A stretch of 64,000 nucleotides of DNA from a virus (IMGVR_UViG_3300031555_001696), one strand, 5' to 3'. Positions 24,835 through 34,717 are shown, counted from the stretch's first letter. Program-made: numbers and translations. The notes: generated by a model from the letters alone, not told the origin.

Positions 24835-25308
24835 GTGATTGATGTGGGTACCAATTTCTATATGATTACTAAGAATAAAAAAATGGCAGAAAAATATGCA
24901 CCATATTCTTATGAGCTGACAGACAGACCATATTTTGGTTATGAAATTCACGTAGCTAAGACTTCATGTGGTTGGCTTCCTCTTTTTCAAGGGCACAGGG
25001 ATGGCATCAATTCTGTGCGTGAATATAAGACGGCGTACAAAACGGGCGAATTTGAAATCGTAGATGAATATGGCAACATTTATACATGGGAAGAATTTGA
25101 TAAACGGGTGTTGCAGTTTAACGGCGGTATTCGAGGAGTTGCACCTATAATTACAATAGAAGTAGATAAAAATTCTAGATGGTATGATCCAAGAATGCCA
25201 GATTGCACTCCAGTAAGTCATTTTGAATATAAATATGGTTATTATTCTGCAAACGATTACTTTACAGACGAAGATGGATATGAATTTGACAGAAGGGAAT
25301 TTTCATAA
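24835..25308 (+). CDS. Hypothetical phage protein
   Basis: GTNFY...IHVAKTSCGW...IVDEYG...EFS. Confidence 0.7.
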   Translation: MIDVGTNFYMITKNKKMAEKYAPYSYELTDRPYFGYEIHVAKTSCGWLPLFQGHRDGINSVREYKTAYKTGEFEIVDEYGNIYTWEEFDKRVLQFNGGIRGVAPIITIEVDKNSRWYDPRMPDCTPVSHFEYKYGYYSANDYFTDEDGYEFDRREFS

Positions 25309-26420
25309 TGTACAAGCTTGAATTAAGAGACTTTATTCTGTCTCACGATAATTGGGAAGAACTTTTAACTGCAGAACCATATTATCTTAAGATTTCTCGT
25401 GATGACGGGTATATCATGTTTAAATATAATCAGGTGTTTTCTGATTTTAATATTCCTCTAGTTCGTGAATCACGAGGAATTATTTTCAGAGAAAGCGATT
25501 GGAAGTGTGTGTCTTATCCGTTTCGAAAATTCGGAAATTATGGTGAGTCTTATTGCCCCGAAATCAACTGGGAAACTGCATCTGTTCAAGAAAAAGTCGA
25601 TGGGTCATTAATTAAATTTTGGTATGATAACGGATGGCATATTTCCACTAACGGCACAATTGATGCGTTTAAGGCTAATCTAAACGATGTTAAGTATGAA
25701 AACTTTGGACAACTTGTTGCTACTGCAATTCATAAAGTATTTGAAGATGAGCACGATTTTTTCAACATGCTTGACCCAAAATGTACATATATGTTTGAAC
25801 TAGTTTCTCCATACAACCGCATAGTTATCCCGTATGAGGAAGTTAAGCTATATTTCTTAGGAATTAGAGATATGAACGATGGAGAGGAATGGAATCCAGA
25901 AGAGTCTGACCTGTCTATGTTTTTCTCTATCCCTAAGCGTTATCCTCTACATTCTCTGGAAGGTGTACAAAAAGCAGCAAATGCGCTTTCTTGGGACGAG
26001 GAGGGTTATGTAGTTTGCGATGCAGATTTTAATAGAGTTAAAATTAAAAGCCCATCTTACGTAATGGCTCATTACGTGCGTAATAACAACACTATTAATA
26101 CTGAGCGGTTAGTACATATTGTTCTTGATGGAGAGCAAGAAGAATTTCTAATTTATGCTTCTGACTATGCTGATGAGCTTCGTAACGTCGAGGATATTAT
26201 GCATAATATTGCAAGCAAGTCAGTTGAAAGTATGAAGATAATATTCGGCGCATCTTATGAATTTGCTAATCGTGGAGAATATGCACGAGAGGTAATGAAA
26301 TATCCTGCATATATGAAAGACTTCCTATTCCGTTGTTTTGATGATAAGATTTTCTGGGATTATGCAAAGAGTTGGAGTATAGATAGATGGGTTAAAGCTA
26401 TTAATGAATTTAAGGGATAA
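25308..26420 (+). CDS. RNA ligase 1 (T4 Rnl1-like)
   Basis: RESRGIIF, PFRKFGN, motif I EKVDGS, TYMFELVSPYNRIV, EEGYVV, RVKIKS. Confidence 0.9.
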   Translation: MYKLELRDFILSHDNWEELLTAEPYYLKISRDDGYIMFKYNQVFSDFNIPLVRESRGIIFRESDWKCVSYPFRKFGNYGESYCPEINWETASVQEKVDGSLIKFWYDNGWHISTNGTIDAFKANLNDVKYENFGQLVATAIHKVFEDEHDFFNMLDPKCTYMFELVSPYNRIVIPYEEVKLYFLGIRDMNDGEEWNPEESDLSMFFSIPKRYPLHSLEGVQKAANALSWDEEGYVVCDADFNRVKIKSPSYVMAHYVRNNNTINTERLVHIVLDGEQEEFLIYASDYADELRNVEDIMHNIASKSVESMKIIFGASYEFANRGEYAREVMKYPAYMKDFLFRCFDDKIFWDYAKSWSIDRWVKAINEFKG

Positions 26421-26427
26421 AAAGAAA

Positions 26428-26703
26428 ATGAAACATAATGTTGTTAAATCTATGATTGGAGGAATTATTACTATGATTATAGCAATTTTGATAATTATTT
26501 GCGCACCCGCTTTTTATTATTTTGGCGGCTGGATTACAGGCCATCTGCTTAGCTGGTTTATCGGTGACATTGTTGTAGATGGTATGAACTATCTGTTTAA
26601 TACTACAAGATTTACAGTTGATATGTTGCCTACTATTTGTGGTACTCTTGGTGTAATTGGGTCTTTCTTTAAGAGTACAACTACGACAAGTTCTAAGAAG
26701 TAA
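26428..26703 (+). CDS. Small membrane protein
   Basis: Hydrophobic helices. Confidence 0.65.
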   Translation: MKHNVVKSMIGGIITMIIAILIIICAPAFYYFGGWITGHLLSWFIGDIVVDGMNYLFNTTRFTVDMLPTICGTLGVIGSFFKSTTTTSSKK

Positions 26704-26712
26704 GGTGATAAG

Positions 26713-27615
26713 ATGTATATCCCGAAGTTTATAATGATGGTAGGTTTGGTTGCGAGCGGCAAGTCTCATATGGCTCAAAAACTCGCTATCGAACACAATG
26801 CTACAATTTTTAGTTCGGATGAACTTCGAGAAGAAATGTTCAATAATGTCAACAACCAAGATCATAACCAAGAACTATTTGTAGAACTTCATAGGCGCAT
26901 CAAGGACTGTCTTCGTAGTGGTAAAAGTGCCATTATGGATTCTACAAACATTAACTACAAGCGTCGTATGGCATTCCTAGCTGAGCTTAAGAGCATTCCT
27001 TGTGAAAAGATTTGTGTGTTAATGGGAACTCCATATGAAGAATGTTTGAAGCGTAATGCTGAGCGTGAACGCAAAGTTCCAGAACATGTAATTTTAAGAA
27101 TGTATAGCAATTTTAACATTCCTTATTGGTATGAAGGTTGGGACGACATTAAAGTTGAATATGGTGTGTTTAAAGGTTATTATGGCAAACTAGCAAGTTG
27201 GTATAACAATTATAAAGATTATAATCAATACAATTCTCACCATACATTAACACTTGGAGAACATTGTTATAGGGCTGCATTAGAGTTAATTGGTAGCAAT
27301 TCTGTCACGTTAGTACGTGCAGCATGGATGCATGATAATGCGAAGCCAGAAACGGCAACATTTATCAACTCCAGGGGTGAGGTAACTACCGAATGTCATT
27401 ATTACAACCACCAATATGTTTCTGGATACAAGGCACTCCTATTTGATTATAGCAATCTATTGGATGTTGCGATTATTGTAATGTGGCATATGCAACCTTA
27501 TTTCTGGGAGAAAGATAATAATGAAAAGTTGCATAGTAAGTATCGTAAGTTATGGGGAGATAATTTGTATCAAGATATTATGCAACTCCATGCGGCGGAT
27601 AAATTGTGGCATTGA
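26713..27615 (+). CDS. Polynucleotide kinase (AAA_33) fused to HD phosphoesterase (Pnkp-like)
   Basis: GLVASGKS P-loop, SSDELR, DSTN; C-terminal HH...EH...MHDNAKP...H...HM...D HD domain. Confidence 0.85.
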   Translation: MYIPKFIMMVGLVASGKSHMAQKLAIEHNATIFSSDELREEMFNNVNNQDHNQELFVELHRRIKDCLRSGKSAIMDSTNINYKRRMAFLAELKSIPCEKICVLMGTPYEECLKRNAERERKVPEHVILRMYSNFNIPYWYEGWDDIKVEYGVFKGYYGKLASWYNNYKDYNQYNSHHTLTLGEHCYRAALELIGSNSVTLVRAAWMHDNAKPETATFINSRGEVTTECHYYNHQYVSGYKALLFDYSNLLDVAIIVMWHMQPYFWEKDNNEKLHSKYRKLWGDNLYQDIMQLHAADKLWH

Positions 27616-27635
27616 AAAAAAAATTAAAATACCTC

Positions 27636-27697
27636 TTGACAAATTAAAAATTTGTGATATAATACACTCACAACAAGACAAACAATACAAAATTAAT
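27636..27697 (+). promoter_or_regulatory. Promoter of NAD operon plus ACAAAATTAAT motif
   Basis: TTGACA-16-TATAAT; motif 27687-27697. Confidence 0.8.
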
Positions 27698-27714
27698 TAA
27701 GGAGATGCAACAAA

Positions 27715-28227
27715 ATGAAAACGCTAATTGTAGTAGACATGCAAAATGATTTTATTGATGCCGCACTTGGCACACCTGAGGCGCAGGCAATAGTACCTAA
27801 CGTTAAAAAGAAGATTGCAGAATATGACGCTCGTGAAGACGCAATTGTTTTTACACGAGACACCCATTTTGAAGATTATCTTGAAACGAATGAAGGCAAG
27901 AACCTTCCTGTTAAGCATTGTATTATGGGAACTCATGGTTGGCAGATTGCAGATGACCTAGAAGTACCTTGTGCTAGATATCTAAATAAGCCTACTTTTG
28001 GTTGGCTTGGTTGGAAGTCATTTGATTTTGAAGACGATGATGAAATTGAACTAGTTGGTCTTTGTACTGATATCTGCGTGGTGTCTAATGCACTAATTCT
28101 AAAGGCAATGTTCCCTGAAGTTAAGATTACAGTGGACGCAAGTTGCTGTGCAGGCGTTACTCCTGAAAGTCATAAGGCGGCACTGCAGACTATGAAGATG
28201 TGCCAGATTAATGTTATTGGAGAGTAA
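27715..28227 (+). CDS. pncA: Nicotinamidase (isochorismatase family)
   Basis: VVDMQNDF, TRDTH, HC..GTHGW, KPTFG, GLCTDICV; NAD operon context. Confidence 0.9.
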   Translation: MKTLIVVDMQNDFIDAALGTPEAQAIVPNVKKKIAEYDAREDAIVFTRDTHFEDYLETNEGKNLPVKHCIMGTHGWQIADDLEVPCARYLNKPTFGWLGWKSFDFEDDDEIELVGLCTDICVVSNALILKAMFPEVKITVDASCCAGVTPESHKAALQTMKMCQINVIGE

Positions 28228-28230
28228 ATT

Positions 28231-29037
28231 ATGATTAAGTTAGATGGTAAAATAGTGCACCAAGAGCATTTTCCAGACAATTCGCTGAGAATTGAACCAA
28301 TCAATGACAATAGTTTCGATCTATCTTTTATGGGAATGACATCAATTCCTAAAAGAATTACTTGGCACTATGAAAGCGATGCTGAATTGTTCACTGTAAT
28401 TTGTCTAAGAAAGCATTTTGCAAATAAGGAAATGATTTTGGAAATGCCTTATTGTCCGCACGCTCGCATGGATCGAGTAAAGAACAACAATGAATTCTTT
28501 ACACTAAAGCATTTTGCAGACGTCATTAATAGTCTTGACTTCTCTGAGGTAAAAATTTATGATCCTCACAGCAATGTATGTACTGCGCTAATTAATAATG
28601 TAAAAGTAATACCTACATATAATGAGGTTCAAAAAGCTCTTAAGACAATTGGCTCAACCAATTTAGTTGCATTTTATCCTGATGAAGGGGCCATGAAGCG
28701 TGGCACTAGCTATTTGACTGGAGCATATGCGTTTGGTATTAAAAATCGTGATTGGCAGACCGGTAAGATTTTAGGACTAGAGCTAATAAATAAGGAAGTT
28801 GTAAATGCGAGAGATGTTTTGATTATTGATGATATCTGTTCTCGTGGAGGTACATTCCTACATTCTGCTAAGGCACTCAAAGAAGCCGGTGCCAGAAAAA
28901 TTTACCTGTACGTAACTCACTGCGAAAATACAATCCTGGATGGTGAGCTACTTACCAGCGGCCTAATTGAAAAGGTATACACAACAAATAGTATTTTTAC
29001 CAAAGGACATGAAATGATTGAGGTATTCGAACTATGA
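28231..29037 (+). CDS. PRPP-synthetase-like enzyme (Prs / ADPR-PP synthase Adps-like)
   Basis: FPDN, MPYCPHARMDR, DPHS, PDEGAMKR, IIDDICSRGGTF, YVTH. Confidence 0.85.
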   Translation: MIKLDGKIVHQEHFPDNSLRIEPINDNSFDLSFMGMTSIPKRITWHYESDAELFTVICLRKHFANKEMILEMPYCPHARMDRVKNNNEFFTLKHFADVINSLDFSEVKIYDPHSNVCTALINNVKVIPTYNEVQKALKTIGSTNLVAFYPDEGAMKRGTSYLTGAYAFGIKNRDWQTGKILGLELINKEVVNARDVLIIDDICSRGGTFLHSAKALKEAGARKIYLYVTHCENTILDGELLTSGLIEKVYTTNSIFTKGHEMIEVFEL

Positions 29038-30518
29038 CAATTAATATTATGATGATGCTTTTTTCGGATACATATAAGCACACTCATCCTCGTATGTATC
29101 CTCGTAAAGAACCATTTAAAATGAAGAAGCTAGTTTCTTATTTAACAGCACGTAAGAATATGTCCCCTGCATTTCCTACAATGGTATTTGTTGGTATGCA
29201 GCCATTTCTAATGAATTATCTTATTGATGGTTTCAACAATCAATTCTTTGATCGGCCTTTGTGTGATGTAGAAGCAGAATATAAGCATTACATGGACATC
29301 CAGGTTGGTGTTGCTAATGTTGAGTGGGATGAAATTGCAGCACTACACGAACTTGGCTATTTGCCTCTTGAGATTCGTGCTTTACCTGAGGGCTCTGTGG
29401 TAAACATGGGTATTCCTGTGGTTGAAATGACTAATACTCATCCCGATTTCGCATGGGTTGTTCAGTGGGTTGAATGTATTTTGCAGGCTGAACTGTGGGC
29501 TCCCTGTGCATACGCAACTATCGGCAAGGCGTATCATGAGCTAGCTGATAAGTACTATAAGGATACCACAGATGGCGCTGACCCCTTCATGGCCATGGCA
29601 GACTTCGGTATGCGTGGCATGTCTTGTATCGAGGATTCTATTCGAGCATCTGCATCGTGGCTGCTAAGTTTCAACAAAACTTCCACTATTCCCGCTCTGC
29701 CGTATATTGATAAATATTATCATGCTGATTGTGCAAAAAATGGTATTGGACGTGGCGCTGTCTCTACGGAACATTCTGTCATGGGTGCCAACTTCGCTAT
29801 CGATGGCGATGAGATCACTTTCGTCAAGAGACTACTAACCGAACTCTATCCTAATACATCTTTCTCTATGGTATCCGATACATACGACTACTGGAATATG
29901 GTCAACAATATTATTCCTGCTTGTAAGGATGAAATCATGGCACATAATGGTAAACTGTTAATTAGACCCGACTCTGGTGATATGCTCACTATTTCTATTC
30001 GTACCATTGAGAAGCTGTGGGAAGTATTTGGAGGCAGTATTAATGCTAAAGGCTATAAGGAACTTGATCCTCATATTGGCCTGATTTATGGTGACGGTTG
30101 TACATTGAACCGTGTAGCTGATATTTATCGAACTCTTAAGGAACGTGGCTTTGCAGCGAATAATGTCGTGTTTGGCGTTGGAGCCTTCTGTTTCCATGCC
30201 ATGTTTGATGTTGGCGGCAAAATGACCGTTATTACACGTGATACTTTTGGTATGGCGATGAAGGCTACATACGGTGAATTTGGTGACAAGAAGTTGTTTA
30301 TCTATAAGGATCCAAAGACCGACGAAGGTAATCTAAAGAAAAGTCATAAGGGATGTTGTATGGTTAGAATGGACAACAAAAACGGTAGATATTTGTGTAT
30401 GGACAAATTCGAAGGTTGGGTTCCTGATCATATGACAGCCCTGGAGACGGTCTTTAAGGATGGTAAGATGATTAAGAGCTATGACTTTATGGACATTCGG
30501 AGGAGAATGTATGGTTAA
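29034..30518 (+). CDS. NAMPT-fold phosphoribosyltransferase (Namat/NadV-like), probably nicotinate-specific
   Basis: DTYK, DFGMRG, STEHSVM, VSDTYD, IRPDSGD, IYGDG, KDPKTD...KKSHKG; KTST at the position of NAMPT GTDT. Confidence 0.85.
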   Translation: MTINIMMMLFSDTYKHTHPRMYPRKEPFKMKKLVSYLTARKNMSPAFPTMVFVGMQPFLMNYLIDGFNNQFFDRPLCDVEAEYKHYMDIQVGVANVEWDEIAALHELGYLPLEIRALPEGSVVNMGIPVVEMTNTHPDFAWVVQWVECILQAELWAPCAYATIGKAYHELADKYYKDTTDGADPFMAMADFGMRGMSCIEDSIRASASWLLSFNKTSTIPALPYIDKYYHADCAKNGIGRGAVSTEHSVMGANFAIDGDEITFVKRLLTELYPNTSFSMVSDTYDYWNMVNNIIPACKDEIMAHNGKLLIRPDSGDMLTISIRTIEKLWEVFGGSINAKGYKELDPHIGLIYGDGCTLNRVADIYRTLKERGFAANNVVFGVGAFCFHAMFDVGGKMTVITRDTFGMAMKATYGEFGDKKLFIYKDPKTDEGNLKKSHKGCCMVRMDNKNGRYLCMDKFEGWVPDHMTALETVFKDGKMIKSYDFMDIRRRMYG

Positions 30519-30972
30519 GATTATTGACGGCAATGTATTTGACTCGACAGCAAATATCATTTGCCACCAGTGCAATTGCCAAGGTGTTATGGGCTCTGGA
30601 GTTGCCGCAGAAGTTAAGAAGAGATACCCGCATGTCTTTCAGAAGTATAGACAAGATTATCTTGATGGCAAACTAGAACTTGGATATGTATGCTTCGCAA
30701 CAGCAAAACAAGATCAGGTAATTGCTAATATGTGCGGACAGGATCTGTTTGGCTACAACGGTTCTATGTATACAAATTATGACAAGCTCCAGGATTGTCT
30801 TAATAGGGTCAAGGAGTACGCAATGTTTGATTATGATGTAAAACCTGTTATTGCACTACCGTACATGATGTCGTGCTGCAGAGGCGGAGGCGACTGGAAT
30901 GTGGTATACAAGATGATCGAAGATACATTCGAGGATTTTGACGTTGAAATTTGGAGGTTTGACAATGGATAA
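30511..30972 (+). CDS. Macro domain protein (ADP-ribose / Appr-1''-p processing)
   Basis: IIDGNVFD...ICHQCNCQGVMGSGVA...ALPYMMSCCRGGGDW. Confidence 0.9.
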   Translation: MVKIIDGNVFDSTANIICHQCNCQGVMGSGVAAEVKKRYPHVFQKYRQDYLDGKLELGYVCFATAKQDQVIANMCGQDLFGYNGSMYTNYDKLQDCLNRVKEYAMFDYDVKPVIALPYMMSCCRGGGDWNVVYKMIEDTFEDFDVEIWRFDNG

Positions 30973-31714
30973 TTTTGATGCAATTAAAGTAAAAAACGAT
31001 ATTATTAAATGGATTTCAGATTGGTTCTCTATTAATGGTCCAGACTGTAATGTGGTATGTGGAATCAGTGGCGGAAAGGATAGTTCTGTTGTAGCGGCGT
31101 TATGTGTAGAGGCGCTTGGCAAAGATAGAGTAATCGGAGTTCTGATGCCGCAGAACACTCAGTCTGACATTGATGATAGCTATGCAGTAGTTAAACACTT
31201 AGGCATTAAGCATAAAGTAATTAATATTGGACCAGTTGTTGATATGATGCTACTTCAATTGTCTATGTTTGGCGAAATGGAAATCTCCGAACAGACAAAG
31301 ATTAACCTACCTCCTAGAATCCGTATGACAACACTCTATGCAGTGTCTCAGAGTGTGAACGGCAGAGTCGCCAATACTTGCAACCTGTCCGAAGATTATA
31401 TTGGTTACAGCACTCGTTGGGGAGATAGTGTTGGAGATTTCGCACCTTTGGCAAATCTAACAAGCGAAGAAGTTGTTGCAATTGGAGACGCTTGTGGATT
31501 ACCTTATGAACTCACTCACAAAACTCCTTCTGATGGTCTGTGCGGGAAAACCGATGAAGACAACTTCGGTTTTACATATGAAGCACTAAATAAGTATATT
31601 CGCACTGGGATTTGCGAAGATGAAGAGGTAAAGGCAAAGATTGATGCTATGCATGAAAAGAACATATTCAAGTTGATGCCAATTCCGACCTTTAGCTACG
31701 AGGTGCATAAATGA
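30965..31714 (+). CDS. nadE: NH3-dependent NAD+ synthetase
   Basis: GISGGKDSS, NLPPRIRM, NLSEDYIGYSTRWGD, TPSDGL..TDE. Confidence 0.95.
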   Translation: MDNFDAIKVKNDIIKWISDWFSINGPDCNVVCGISGGKDSSVVAALCVEALGKDRVIGVLMPQNTQSDIDDSYAVVKHLGIKHKVINIGPVVDMMLLQLSMFGEMEISEQTKINLPPRIRMTTLYAVSQSVNGRVANTCNLSEDYIGYSTRWGDSVGDFAPLANLTSEEVVAIGDACGLPYELTHKTPSDGLCGKTDEDNFGFTYEALNKYIRTGICEDEEVKAKIDAMHEKNIFKLMPIPTFSYEVHK

Positions 31715-31995
31715 CAACTAAAAGCTTTATCATTAAAACCGTAACGAAAATTATCATATACGCGATCATCTCAACAATTGCACTAAGTATTCTAGAAAGT
31801 CCCATTATCACCAATGAAATTGCTATGGGCCAGATGGAAAACAGCAATGAGCTATATATGTTAATGGAAGCTTATAACAGGCTTCGCCACTTTATTTCAA
31901 TCATTTATGGTTGTATCACCGCACTATTTGCAGGAACAATCATTGGTGATACATACAAATTTCTTAAAACAAAAATCAACAAAGGAGAAAATTAA
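31711..31995 (+). CDS. Small membrane protein
   Basis: Two hydrophobic segments; precedes SPFH gene. Confidence 0.7.
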   Translation: MTTKSFIIKTVTKIIIYAIISTIALSILESPIITNEIAMGQMENSNELYMLMEAYNRLRHFISIIYGCITALFAGTIIGDTYKFLKTKINKGEN

Positions 31996-31997
31996 TT

Positions 31998-32939
31998 ATG
32001 AAGAAGATTATCGCACTCGTACTAATGCTTGCTCTGACCTGCTGCCTGTTTACCGGCTGTCGCAGACCTTATGACAAGCCCGAATTCGTCACCATTGAAG
32101 CATCTCAGACCGCATTCCTAGTGCCTCTAGTTGGTGATAGCTCCAATCAGTCTGCATTTGAATCCGAAGAAATGCTATTAGAAGCAAAAGTCGCCACCAA
32201 GGAAATCCAGATCCCTCACCGCTGGGTACAGACTGGTCGTCGCCACTGGATGGGCCATTGGCGTGCAAGCGCAACTCTAATTGTTGTTGAGCGTAAGCCC
32301 GTATCTCGTTCCTGGGAATCCGGTAGTTCTTCCGCCGATTCCGCCAACCGCGCAATCTTTGGCGGCAGCTCTGACAATATTGGCATCTATGTTGGTATGA
32401 ACTGCACCGCTATGATCGAGGAAAAGGACGCCGCAAAGTTCCTATATCGTTATAACAACACTCCCCTGGAAACTATCATTGACACCGACATTAAGAAACT
32501 GGTTGAAGATCGCTTTAATGTAGAGACTGCTAAGTATACTTCTACTGAGCTGGGTGCTAAGAAGGGCGAGATTATGGAGGCCGTAAAGGCTTATGTGGTT
32601 CCTTACTTCAAGGAATATGGCATCACCATTACTGTTCTGGGTCTGAAGGAAGACATTTCTTATGAGAATCCTGAGATTCAAAAGGCCATTGATGCTAAGT
32701 TTGCATCTGAACAGGAACTAGTGATTCAGCAGAATAAGAACGAAGCAAGCATTGCTAAGGCAGAAGCTGAAGCAAAGTCTATGATTATGCTTGCTCAAGC
32801 GCAGGCTGAGGCGAACGAACTGCTAGCAAATTCTATCACCGATAAAATTCTTGCTAAGATGTATTACGAAAAGTGGAATGGCGTGCTGCCCCAGTTCTAT
32901 GGTGCAGAAGACGCTCTAATTGAGATTCCCGCAGCGTAA
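31998..32939 (+). CDS. SPFH/band 7 (prohibitin-like) lipoprotein
   Basis: Lipobox LFTGC; GITIT...IQKAIDAK...AQAQAEANELLANSIT...EKWNGVLP. Confidence 0.85.
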   Translation: MKKIIALVLMLALTCCLFTGCRRPYDKPEFVTIEASQTAFLVPLVGDSSNQSAFESEEMLLEAKVATKEIQIPHRWVQTGRRHWMGHWRASATLIVVERKPVSRSWESGSSSADSANRAIFGGSSDNIGIYVGMNCTAMIEEKDAAKFLYRYNNTPLETIIDTDIKKLVEDRFNVETAKYTSTELGAKKGEIMEAVKAYVVPYFKEYGITITVLGLKEDISYENPEIQKAIDAKFASEQELVIQQNKNEASIAKAEAEAKSMIMLAQAQAEANELLANSITDKILAKMYYEKWNGVLPQFYGAEDALIEIPAA

Positions 32940-32948
32940 AAAAATATA

Positions 32949-32979
32949 CGGGCCACGGCAAAACTGTGGCCCGCTTTTT
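32949..32979 (+). terminator. Intrinsic terminator
   Basis: CGGGCCACGG-CAAAA-CTGTGGCCCG then CTTTTT. Confidence 0.85.
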
Positions 32980-33058
32980 GTTAATATTGCACAATTGACA
33001 AATGAAGATTAGTATGATAATATAACGATACAAAATTAATAAAAGGAAGAAACAACAT

Positions 33059-33484
33059 ATGACTATTACTATTGAAAAGAAGGATCTATTTACTGTGCCA
33101 CAGGGCTACTATCTCGCCCATTGCGTATCGTCCGACTTTGCCCTTGGAGCTGGAATCGCAAAGGTTTTTGATGAGGTGTACAATATGCGGTCTAAGCTCT
33201 TTAAGAATTATCCAAACTATGTATACAGTGGCGGTGACGCTCTGCTGGTTGATAATGTTTTTAACCTTGTAACCAAACAGAAGTATTATCACAAACCCAC
33301 TTACGAATCTCTGAGAGAGGCTCTTGAGACGATGAGAGAGCATCTAGAGCTCCTTGATGTGACGAAACTGGCAATGCCGAAGATTGCATCGGGCCTTGAT
33401 CGTCTTAATTGGAATCTGGTATATGATATTATTTGCGAAACTTTTGAAGAAACCGACATTGATATTGTGATTTGCGAACTTTAA
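33059..33484 (+). CDS. Macro domain ADP-ribosylhydrolase (TARG1/DarG-like)
   Basis: DLF...LAHCVSSDFALGAGIAKVF...NLVTK...LAMPKIASGLDRLNW. Confidence 0.9.
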   Translation: MTITIEKKDLFTVPQGYYLAHCVSSDFALGAGIAKVFDEVYNMRSKLFKNYPNYVYSGGDALLVDNVFNLVTKQKYYHKPTYESLREALETMREHLELLDVTKLAMPKIASGLDRLNWNLVYDIICETFEETDIDIVICEL

Positions 33485-33499
33485 TTGGAGGCTATAACA

Positions 33500-34717
33500 A
33501 TGGAAGTACGGCCCACATATTTGATTATGACTACAGCAGCAAATAACAACAAATATTATAACATTTTTCCAGAGGGCGACAGACTTAGAGTGGAGTACGG
33601 AAGGATTGATGCAACCAAGACAACCACATATTATCCAATTTCTAAATTTGAAACACAGGTGAAATCAAAGATCAAGAAAGGCTACGTTGACGTAACCGAT
33701 TTGAAGAAAGACCTTGTGCAAGAAATCTCCACTGCAAACCCTGAAAGTCCTTACAAAGAAATTGAGAACGCAGCAATTAAAGCAATTGTTGACAAGCTGC
33801 ATGCTATGGCCCGTGAAACAATTCAGAAAAACTACACCGTTAAGGCTTCTGCGGTTACTCATGACATGGTTGATGCTGCACAGAAAATTATTGATGACCT
33901 AGCCAACAGCAGCTCAACCGTAGAAGAATTTAATGCGAATCTACTAAAGCTGTTCACTGTAATTCCTAGAAAAATGGGCAACGTAAGAGACTATCTTTCT
34001 AACAAGGCGGAAGACTTTGCTCGCATTATTTCTAAGGAGCAGGATCTACTGGACGTTATGCGTGGCCAGATTTATGTTAAGCCCGACAACGAACCCGTTG
34101 AGGCTGTGGAGAAGAAGCAGCAGACTATTCTTGAAGAACTTGGTCTTGTCATGGAAGAGACTACTGAAGATGATGTTGCTATGATTAAGAGTTTGATGAA
34201 CGAGTCTGCTGGAAAGTTTAGAAAGGCTTGGAGAGTTACTAATCTGAAGACCCAGGAGCGCTTTGATAAGTTTGTTCAGGAGAATGATATTAAGGACACG
34301 AGACTATTCTTCCATGGTAGTAGAAGTGAAAATTTCTGGTCAATTATCAAAATGGGTCTTGTATTAAGACCTACAAACGCCGTAATTACAGGAAAAATGT
34401 TTGGATTTGGTTCGTATTTTTCGAACAAGTGCGCAAAGAGTATTGGTTATACTTCACTGTCTGGTTCTTATTGGGCACATGGCGGAAACAACATCGCGTA
34501 TATGGCATTGTTTGATGTAGCCTATGGTACTCCTTATGATGTCTACAATTTTGACAGCAAGTATTACAACCTTGATTATAATAAGCTTCAGCAGTTTAAG
34601 CCTGGGGCTAACTGTCTGCACGCACATGCTGATAGAGGAATGTTGAGAAACGATGAGATTGTTGTTTACAAGGAAGAGCAGATGACTATTAAGTATCTAA
34701 TTGAGATTGGTAATTGA
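33500..34717 (+). CDS. Poly(ADP-ribose) polymerase (WGR + regulatory + catalytic domains)
   Basis: NNKYY...EYGR (WGR), LFTVIPR (regulatory), FHGSR / GKMFGFGSYF / KSIGY / NDEIVVY H-Y-E triad. Confidence 0.9.
   Translation: MEVRPTYLIMTTAANNNKYYNIFPEGDRLRVEYGRIDATKTTTYYPISKFETQVKSKIKKGYVDVTDLKKDLVQEISTANPESPYKEIENAAIKAIVDKLHAMARETIQKNYTVKASAVTHDMVDAAQKIIDDLANSSSTVEEFNANLLKLFTVIPRKMGNVRDYLSNKAEDFARIISKEQDLLDVMRGQIYVKPDNEPVEAVEKKQQTILEELGLVMEETTEDDVAMIKSLMNESAGKFRKAWRVTNLKTQERFDKFVQENDIKDTRLFFHGSRSENFWSIIKMGLVLRPTNAVITGKMFGFGSYFSNKCAKSIGYTSLSGSYWAHGGNNIAYMALFDVAYGTPYDVYNFDSKYYNLDYNKLQQFKPGANCLHAHADRGMLRNDEIVVYKEEQMTIKYLIEIGN

Follow-up and report, generated by a model that had tools for sequence, protein, structure and literature searches.

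Depletion of nicotinamide adenine dinucleotide (NAD+) is among the commonest strategies that bacteria use against phages, and four phage-encoded answers to it, NARP1, NARP2, NARP1-AP and NARP3, were all described between 2024 and 2026, in a field under active study. NARP1, known from phages SPbetaL1, Bas63 and ICP1, consists of Adps and Namat (Osterman et al., bioRxiv 10.1101/2024.02.11.579819; structures in PMC12774641 and PMC13586617); for ICP1 Adps both a structure and an ADP-ribose pyrophosphate (ADPR-PP) synthetase activity have been published. NARP1-AP of Vibrio phage Gary adds Adpp, which converts ADP-ribose-1''-phosphate to ADP-ribose (ADPR) and defeats aRES (bioRxiv 10.64898/2026.01.28.702374). 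NARP2 combines Nampt with Nmnat, and NARP3 combines PnuC with NadR (PMC13464706). Here we analyzed a 64-kb stretch of DNA from an uncultured gut phage (IMGVR_UViG_3300031555_001696), referred to as the window, which at 27715-31714 on the plus strand carries five co-directional open reading frames (ORFs) for a PncA-like nicotinamidase, an Adps-like protein, a Namat-like transferase, a macro-domain protein and the NAD synthetase NadE. We propose, with a probability of roughly 0.6, that this module represents a variant of NARP1, routed through nicotinate and extended by an Adpp add-on, in which NAD+ would be rebuilt from ADPR by way of nicotinate and nicotinic acid adenine dinucleotide (NaAD).

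The module resembles NARP1 in that a homologue of the PRS-like enzyme Adps adjoins a Namat-type transferase with an intact catalytic His/Arg/Asp core, and presumably also in its logic, the rebuilding of a dinucleotide from ADPR without an adenylyltransferase. It differs in that Asp215 and Ala242 of Namat are both Ser and the clamp helix is remodelled, and in that PncA and NadE are obligatory partners and the predicted product is NaAD instead of NAD+. With NARP1-AP (Adps-Adpp-Namat) it shares a Poa1p-like macro protein, which probably turns ADPR-1''-phosphate into ADPR against aRES-type defence; the earlier suggestion that this protein supplies ADPR thus fits the published role of Adpp. Here, however, the macro gene follows the transferase, the base branch is different, and a macro gene is present in about two thirds of the nicotinate-type loci. 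The Preiss-Handler pathway (PncA, PncB, NadD and NadE) likewise deamidates first and amidates last, and the PncA and NadE of the window are ordinary members of their families; but neither a PncB-type nicotinate phosphoribosyltransferase (NAPRTase) nor NadD was found in the window, where an enzyme of NAMPT/Namat fold stands together with Adps instead. Like NARP2 and NARP3, the module would be a phage-encoded means of NAD+ restoration; unlike them, it has other entry metabolites and no adenylyltransferase of NadM, NadD or NadR type was found in a six-frame translation of the window, where no search was made for PnuC, the other part of NARP3. The profile used for NadD also took in a conserved gene next to it, and it recovered both in a control. 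Among related phages, three genomes that are complete or nearly so (CheckV 98-100%) likewise gave no match to PF01467. The original prediction, made from the DNA sequence, had noted the missing adenylyltransferase correctly and had proposed a search for nadD, nadM and nadR in the rest of the genome; NadM-like genes occur in some related loci, as described below. Its label of a third route is not supported, as the name NARP3 is already given to PnuC and NadR.

The evidence for a change of substrate begins in the base pocket of the transferase. In the crystal structure of Namat, Asp215 hydrogen-bonds nicotinamide, and Ala242 is one of seven residues named for the nicotinamide pocket. The D215A mutant of Namat loses activity about 8-fold, not entirely, and in human NAMPT the mutation D219S switches substrate preference while D219A inactivates the enzyme (Khan 2006, as tabulated in PMC4919578). 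The window transferase matched the solved phage Namat 9w5x at 5.5e-99 (335 bits), against about 1e-53 (about 183 bits) for human NAMPT, and its catalytic core is intact, with H247, R311, D313, F191, R194, D12 and Y14 corresponding to Namat His245, Arg306, Asp308, Phe189, Arg192, Asp13 and Tyr15. At the position of Asp215, which is Asp219 in human NAMPT, the window reads LLSFNKTSTIP where SPbetaL1 Namat reads LLSFTGTDTIP, so that Ser217 takes the place of the Asp, as had been predicted; KTSTIP was present in 81 of 81 clade members. A scan for clade-specific positions revealed a second replacement as sharp as the first, Ala242 to Ser244: this residue is Ser in 98% of representatives of the clade with Ala or Ser at the Asp215 position (the Ala/Ser clade) and Ala in 99% of Asp-type representatives. 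Two of the seven nicotinamide-pocket residues are thus replaced, and we consider the protein a candidate nicotinate ADP-ribose transferase. With the PncB-type NAPRTase model TIGR01513, whose cut-off is 297 bits, it scored 24, which does not support assignment to PncB. The window transferase has Lys215 where the human enzyme has Gly217, and a positive charge there could be attractive near a carboxylate; since this residue is not universal in the clade, its role is just an idea.

We next asked how these residues are distributed among relatives, which were gathered with HMMER in a full search across 1.84 billion representatives of clusters (50% identity), the 150 nearest being taken. The residue at the Asp215 position was Asp in 99 of them, Ala, Ser or Val in 49 (30, 18 and 1, respectively) and Glu in one, while two sequences did not cover it. 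In a tree of the 126 adequately covered sequences, the included non-Asp members formed a single clade that contains the window transferase. Genomic context was drawn from IMG/VR, GenBank phages, GTDB genomes and metagenome contigs, and six-frame translations of the loci were scanned with profiles made from the proteins of the operon. Few loci came from scans of IMG/VR in which distant representatives served as single-protein queries. Across 192 loci the two pocket positions covaried without exception: Asp occurred with Ala in 90 of 90 cases and Ala or Ser occurred with Ser in 102 of 102.

Gene linkage followed the same division. Counting only loci flanked by at least 3 kb on both sides (84 of Ala/Ser type and 76 of Asp type), PncA was nearby in 83/84 Ala/Ser-type loci and NadE in 81/84, and neither was found in any of the 76 Asp-type loci. 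Adps accompanied both types (84/84 and 69/76), a macro gene was nearby in 55/84 and 11/76, and a nicotinamide mononucleotide adenylyltransferase (NMNAT) in 6/84 and 0/76. After clustering at 70% identity, PncA was linked in 14 and NadE in 13 of 15 Ala/Ser clusters, as against none of 15 Asp-type clusters; single-linkage clustering at 50% merged the two types and was discarded. Four further deep lineages, including the most basal, had NadE in 4/4 and PncA in 3/4. Exceptions came from short contigs, from the dispersed cluster L084 and from two bacterial genomes in which a NadE of the same type lies elsewhere. Gene order varies among lineages, with PncA after NadE in MT835544 and Adps after NadE in L098, and this argues for selection rather than mere inheritance. 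In one protein of 865 amino acids (P0225; L189:7115-9712), found in two assemblies on a phage-like contig, a Ser-type transferase is fused to an NAD synthase domain. A search for longer fused forms returned only proteins bearing inteins or inserts, and no NadE fusion beyond this one. Together, the single deep clade of Asp-to-Ser/Ala change, the near-constant linkage to PncA and NadE that Asp-type loci lack, and the fusion support the deamidated NARP1 variant that was originally proposed.

The neighbours of P0225 include PncA, two RNA ligases and a 510-amino-acid Adps-like gene. Namat homologues are often 800-1100 amino acids long through large insertions inside or before the enzyme (P0122, P0140, P0148, P0156, P0160, P0279 and others), P0148, for example, containing HNH/AP2 domains and P0279 a LAGLIDADG-family insertion; this gene seems often to carry inteins or homing-endonuclease insertions.

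The remaining proteins of the module are consistent with the roles that such a variant would give them. The PRS-like protein matches Pfam PRPS models weakly. A sequence search of the PDB returned no solved Adps, and the ICP1 sequence was taken from GenBank instead; the window protein is 31-35% identical to it and keeps F18, R87, H121, D161, K185, D212 and D213. Its median score to Adps proteins encoded beside Asp-type Namat was 99 bits (maximum 161), compared with 27-57 bits to canonical PRPS, and the sequence favors, without proving, an Adps identity. In PncA, whose best solved match is the Pyrococcus pyrazinamidase/nicotinamidase 1ilw, the catalytic residues D8, K92 and C121 and the metal ligands D49, H51 and H68 are invariant across 74 distinct operon-linked homologues. 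The macro protein, with solved matches to BT1257 and yeast Poa1p, has homologues that directly adjoin Adps in Vibrio phage NARP1 operons, and by this analogy it is likely an Adpp-like ADPR-1''-phosphate phosphatase. NadE scored 168 bits with TIGR00552, above the cut-off of 63.65, is closest among solved structures to Pyrococcus NadE (2e18, 2.6e-38), and its SGGxDS loop is invariant. NadE is uncommon in phages, occurring in 49 of 50,697 records as against 2,020 with a Namat/Nampt homologue, and the best NadE matches adjoin Ala-type transferases.

Two side observations concern these genes. The Adps-like protein aligns with the first part of the profile phrog_12872 (547 positions) and the transferase with its last part (window 28231-30518), a pattern suggesting that some phages encode Adps-Namat fusions or chimeras. 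In the code-15 gut phage Phass-1 (OQ749652.1, L082:9995-10918), whose transferase is of Ala type with a canonical clamp, the operon's NadE carries the annotation 'hypothetical protein'; the Phass-1 paper lists the nicotinamidase only.

In the route that we propose, nicotinamide set free by defences that cleave NAD+, or by NAD+ users of the phage itself, would be deamidated to nicotinate by PncA, as the conserved catalytic residues of this enzyme suggest. The macro protein, by homology to the published Adpp, would yield ADPR from ADPR-1''-phosphate, and the Adps-like enzyme, by homology to ICP1 Adps, would convert ADPR to ADPR-PP. The transferase, with Ser217 and Ser244 replacing the nicotinamide-binding Asp and Ala, would join nicotinate to ADPR-PP and give NaAD directly, a reaction not yet described, and NadE, in the reaction usual for its family, would use ATP and ammonia to turn NaAD into NAD+. 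No adenylyltransferase would be needed. Why a phage should take this detour is a matter of speculation: a nicotinate-specific enzyme working with PncA could take both pyridines and could operate where host PncA quickly removes nicotinamide. Equally speculative is the idea, from the original prediction, that the phage stores its pool as NaAD to resist NADases, for which the analysis gave no support. Full-text searches, which left subscription journals outside, found no literature linking Namat or NARP1 with NadE, PncA, nicotinic acid or NaAD, and within the same scope neither the reaction of nicotinate with ADPR-PP to NaAD nor a route from ADPR through nicotinate and NaAD was found in any paper.

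Several observations weigh against this proposal. The substrate assignments for enzymes of the Ala/Ser clade are all inferred, and the detour costs extra ATP for a benefit that is unexplained. The Ala/Ser state arose once, and the linkage to PncA and NadE therefore counts as one event held over deep divergence, not as many independent ones. The PRS-like protein lacks F92 and D216 of ICP1 Adps, and because the residues that it does keep are also PRPS residues, Adps and PRPS are not separable on this basis. In the adenine clamp, a determinant of the preference for ADPR-PP, Arg40 is changed to Met43 and Ser391 to Ala384 in the window lineage; the canonical Namat motif GSxTYQYxTRD is replaced in the window transferase, with Phe at position 3, Ala at position 7 and the position of Tyr396 lost. 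Since the clamp is remodelled, phosphoribosyl pyrophosphate (PRPP) may serve as donor in this lineage. In favor of the proposal, on the other hand, basal Ala-type lineages, including Phass-1, retain the canonical ADPR-PP clamp motif. A last point against it is that the nearest relative, with an 82% identical transferase (L002, IMGVR_UViG_3300029305_001452), has a NadM-like NMNAT of 192 amino acids and NadM/archaeal type between Adps and the transferase (L002:7380-7958), and NadM-like NMNATs lie near the operon in six other loci, at a distance of a few kb in L005/L006 and L074/L077/L080. These genes keep PRPP-based explanations alive for the window lineage, and some members may run a PRPP/mononucleotide branch in parallel.

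One PRPP-based explanation is that the phage boosts the Preiss-Handler pathway of its host: the PRS-like protein would make PRPP, the transferase would give nicotinic acid mononucleotide (NaMN), host NadD would convert this to NaAD and phage NadE would finish. It is consistent with the PRPP activity of Namat in vitro and with the behavior of its clamp mutants, which lose only the ADPR-PP reaction, given that the clamp of the window enzyme is remodelled; the shared PRPS residues fit it as well, and the NCBIfam model 'nicotinate phosphoribosyltransferase' matches the transferase at 433 bits. Yet NadD never occurs in the cluster, whereas jumbo phages with true Preiss-Handler clusters carry pncB-nadD-nadE, and a fusion of transferase and NadE would skip the supposed middle step. 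Bacteria in which the cluster occurs have PncB, NadD and another NadE already; matches of the PRS-like protein to NARP1 Adps reach 99-161 bits, against at most 57 to PRPS; and an ADPR-yielding Adpp macro is present in 55 of the 84 loci. We regard this explanation as unlikely. A further variant takes NaMN along a Francisella-like route, in which the NadE homologue would act as a nicotinamide mononucleotide (NMN) synthetase, converting NaMN to NMN, and a NadM-type NMNAT of phage or host would complete NAD+. The second-best solved match of NadE is indeed the Francisella enzyme 3fiu (1.7e-31), the transferase-NadE fusion is compatible with such a sequence of steps, and the NMNATs of L002 and the six other loci would supply the last one. 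But the best NadE match is of archaeal type, and the Methanocaldococcus jannaschii member of that type is a robust NAD synthetase using NaAD; no NMNAT was found in the window, in 78 of the 84 loci or in the three complete or near-complete relatives; and deamidating and then re-amidating at the mononucleotide level brings no evident gain over NARP2. This route appears very improbable.

If instead the module were an ordinary NARP1-AP working on nicotinamide, with PncA and NadE as unrelated accessories serving, for example, nicotinamide removal or a boost of host salvage, then the catalytic core of the transferase should be intact, which it is, and the pocket change need not be fatal, as the 8-fold reduced D215A Namat illustrates. 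The phage also encodes an NAD+ user, a PARP, that nicotinamide could inhibit. However, this leaves unexplained why PncA and NadE are nearly always found with the Ala/Ser clade and never in the 76 Asp-type loci, why a second pocket residue changes in coordination and why NadE is fused to the transferase; moreover, a phage PncA would destroy the substrate of a nicotinamide-using Namat. We consider this possibility quite improbable, and keep to the nicotinate-routed NARP1 variant as our preferred reading.

A bacterial example extends the comparison beyond phages. The cultured strain Clostridium tunisiense TJ (NZ_AMQH01000011.1, L110:7698-12220) has, in a non-phage neighbourhood, a cluster of NrtR (Nudix plus winged helix), an Adps-like protein, PncA, an Ala-type transferase and NadE. 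Elsewhere its genome encodes a 636-amino-acid NadE, a PncB-like NAPRTase and NadD, and because these are separate, the cluster is an extra pathway and not the organism's own Preiss-Handler route. NrtR also controls ordinary salvage genes, and its linkage was rejected as proof of ADPR use, being non-specific. As the cluster is chromosomal in a cultured bacterium, C. tunisiense is a tractable organism for the pathway and its ADPR regulation. Taken broadly, we lean, with reservation, toward seeing in the Namat homologues of Ala/Ser type a new class of enzyme, the nicotinate ADP-ribose transferases (nicotinate + ADPR-PP to NaAD + PPi), which with PncA, Adps and NadE would make up a fourth, adenylyltransferase-free route to NAD+, widespread in gut phages and serving as NrtR-regulated housekeeping recycling of ADPR in Clostridia.

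The features of the locus are collected in the table; ORFs were named by matches to Pfam, PHROG and NCBIfam profiles.

Table. Features of the NAD+ module and its flanks in the 64-kb window.
Feature	Coordinates	Strand	Basis or remark
Promoter-like site, TTGACA-16-TATAAT with TG extension (extended -10)	27636..27663	+	12/12 sigma-70 consensus; consensus match only
Ribosome-binding site AAGGAG	about 27700	+	Ahead of PncA start
PncA-like nicotinamidase, 170 aa	27715..28227	+	Isochorismatase PF00857, 4e-27
Adps-like homologue of PRS, 268 aa, presumably an ADP-ribose pyrophosphokinase	28231..29037	+	phrog_619, 1e-66
Namat-like transferase, 494 aa, remodelled base pocket	29034..30518	+	NAPRTase/NAMPT_N; phrog_448, 6e-150
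Ser217 codon (Namat Asp215, human NAMPT Asp219)	29682..29684	+	Alignment with SPbetaL1 Namat
Ser244 codon (Namat Ala242, nicotinamide pocket)	29763..29765	+	Clade-specific position scan
Remodelled selectivity-clamp helix region, residues 381-403 (GAFCFHA, ~10 inserted residues, TRD)	30174..30242	+	Alignment with Namat
Macro-domain protein, Adpp/Poa1p-like	30511..30972 (likely start ATG 30511; ORF opens 30481)	+	PF01661; phrog_335 'phosphatase', 2.5e-39
NH3-dependent NAD synthetase NadE, single-domain	30965..31714 (likely start ATG 30965; ORF opens 30938)	+	NAD_synthase PF02540, 1.5e-49
94-aa ORF without family and SPFH/Band-7 protein (313 aa)	31711..32939	+	4-nt overlap with NadE; no terminator before 32949
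Terminator-like hairpin, 10-bp stem, 8 GC pairs, T-rich tail	32949..32973	+	Closes predicted unit

With the likely macro and NadE starts, each preceded by GGAGG and overlapping the preceding stop by 8 nt, the five ORFs touch or overlap by 4-8 nt. The promoter-like site is the sole 12/12 match in 26500-33500. The original prediction of five tightly packed genes behind one promoter is borne out as to the five ORFs and the promoter-like site but not as to the extent of the unit: since the first strong terminator after the predicted promoter comes only beyond the 94-amino-acid ORF and the SPFH/Band-7 gene, the transcription unit probably comprises seven genes. These last two are common only to the nearest relative, L002, and for this reason we do not count them as core. 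A second promoter-like site (32995-33023) is followed by a 141-amino-acid ORF and a protein with a PARP catalytic domain (PF00644, 6e-23), through 34717, and an RNA ligase and a polynucleotide-kinase-like protein lie upstream of the operon (25308-27615). The surrounding DNA is that of a phage, as these genes indicate, and with the RNA ligase, kinase and PARP-like genes adjoining the operon, the phage thus encodes its own NAD+ consumers beside its NAD+ module. A megablast of the operon against GenBank phages gave no match; the nearest records are uncultured gut phages with at most 49% protein identity.

If the proposed assignment is true, NAD metabolism would gain a new enzymatic reaction, and the presence of PncA and NadE beside hundreds of gut-phage 'NAMPT' genes would be explained. 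Such enzymes could then be recognized in annotation by two simple markers combined, Ser or Ala in place of Asp215 and Ser in place of Ala242. The assignment would further allow a prediction of the defences and host backgrounds that favor the pathway, for instance hosts with strong PncA activity. The NrtR-linked bacterial copies suggest that the recycling of ADPR through NaAD may also be a normal form of cellular salvage.

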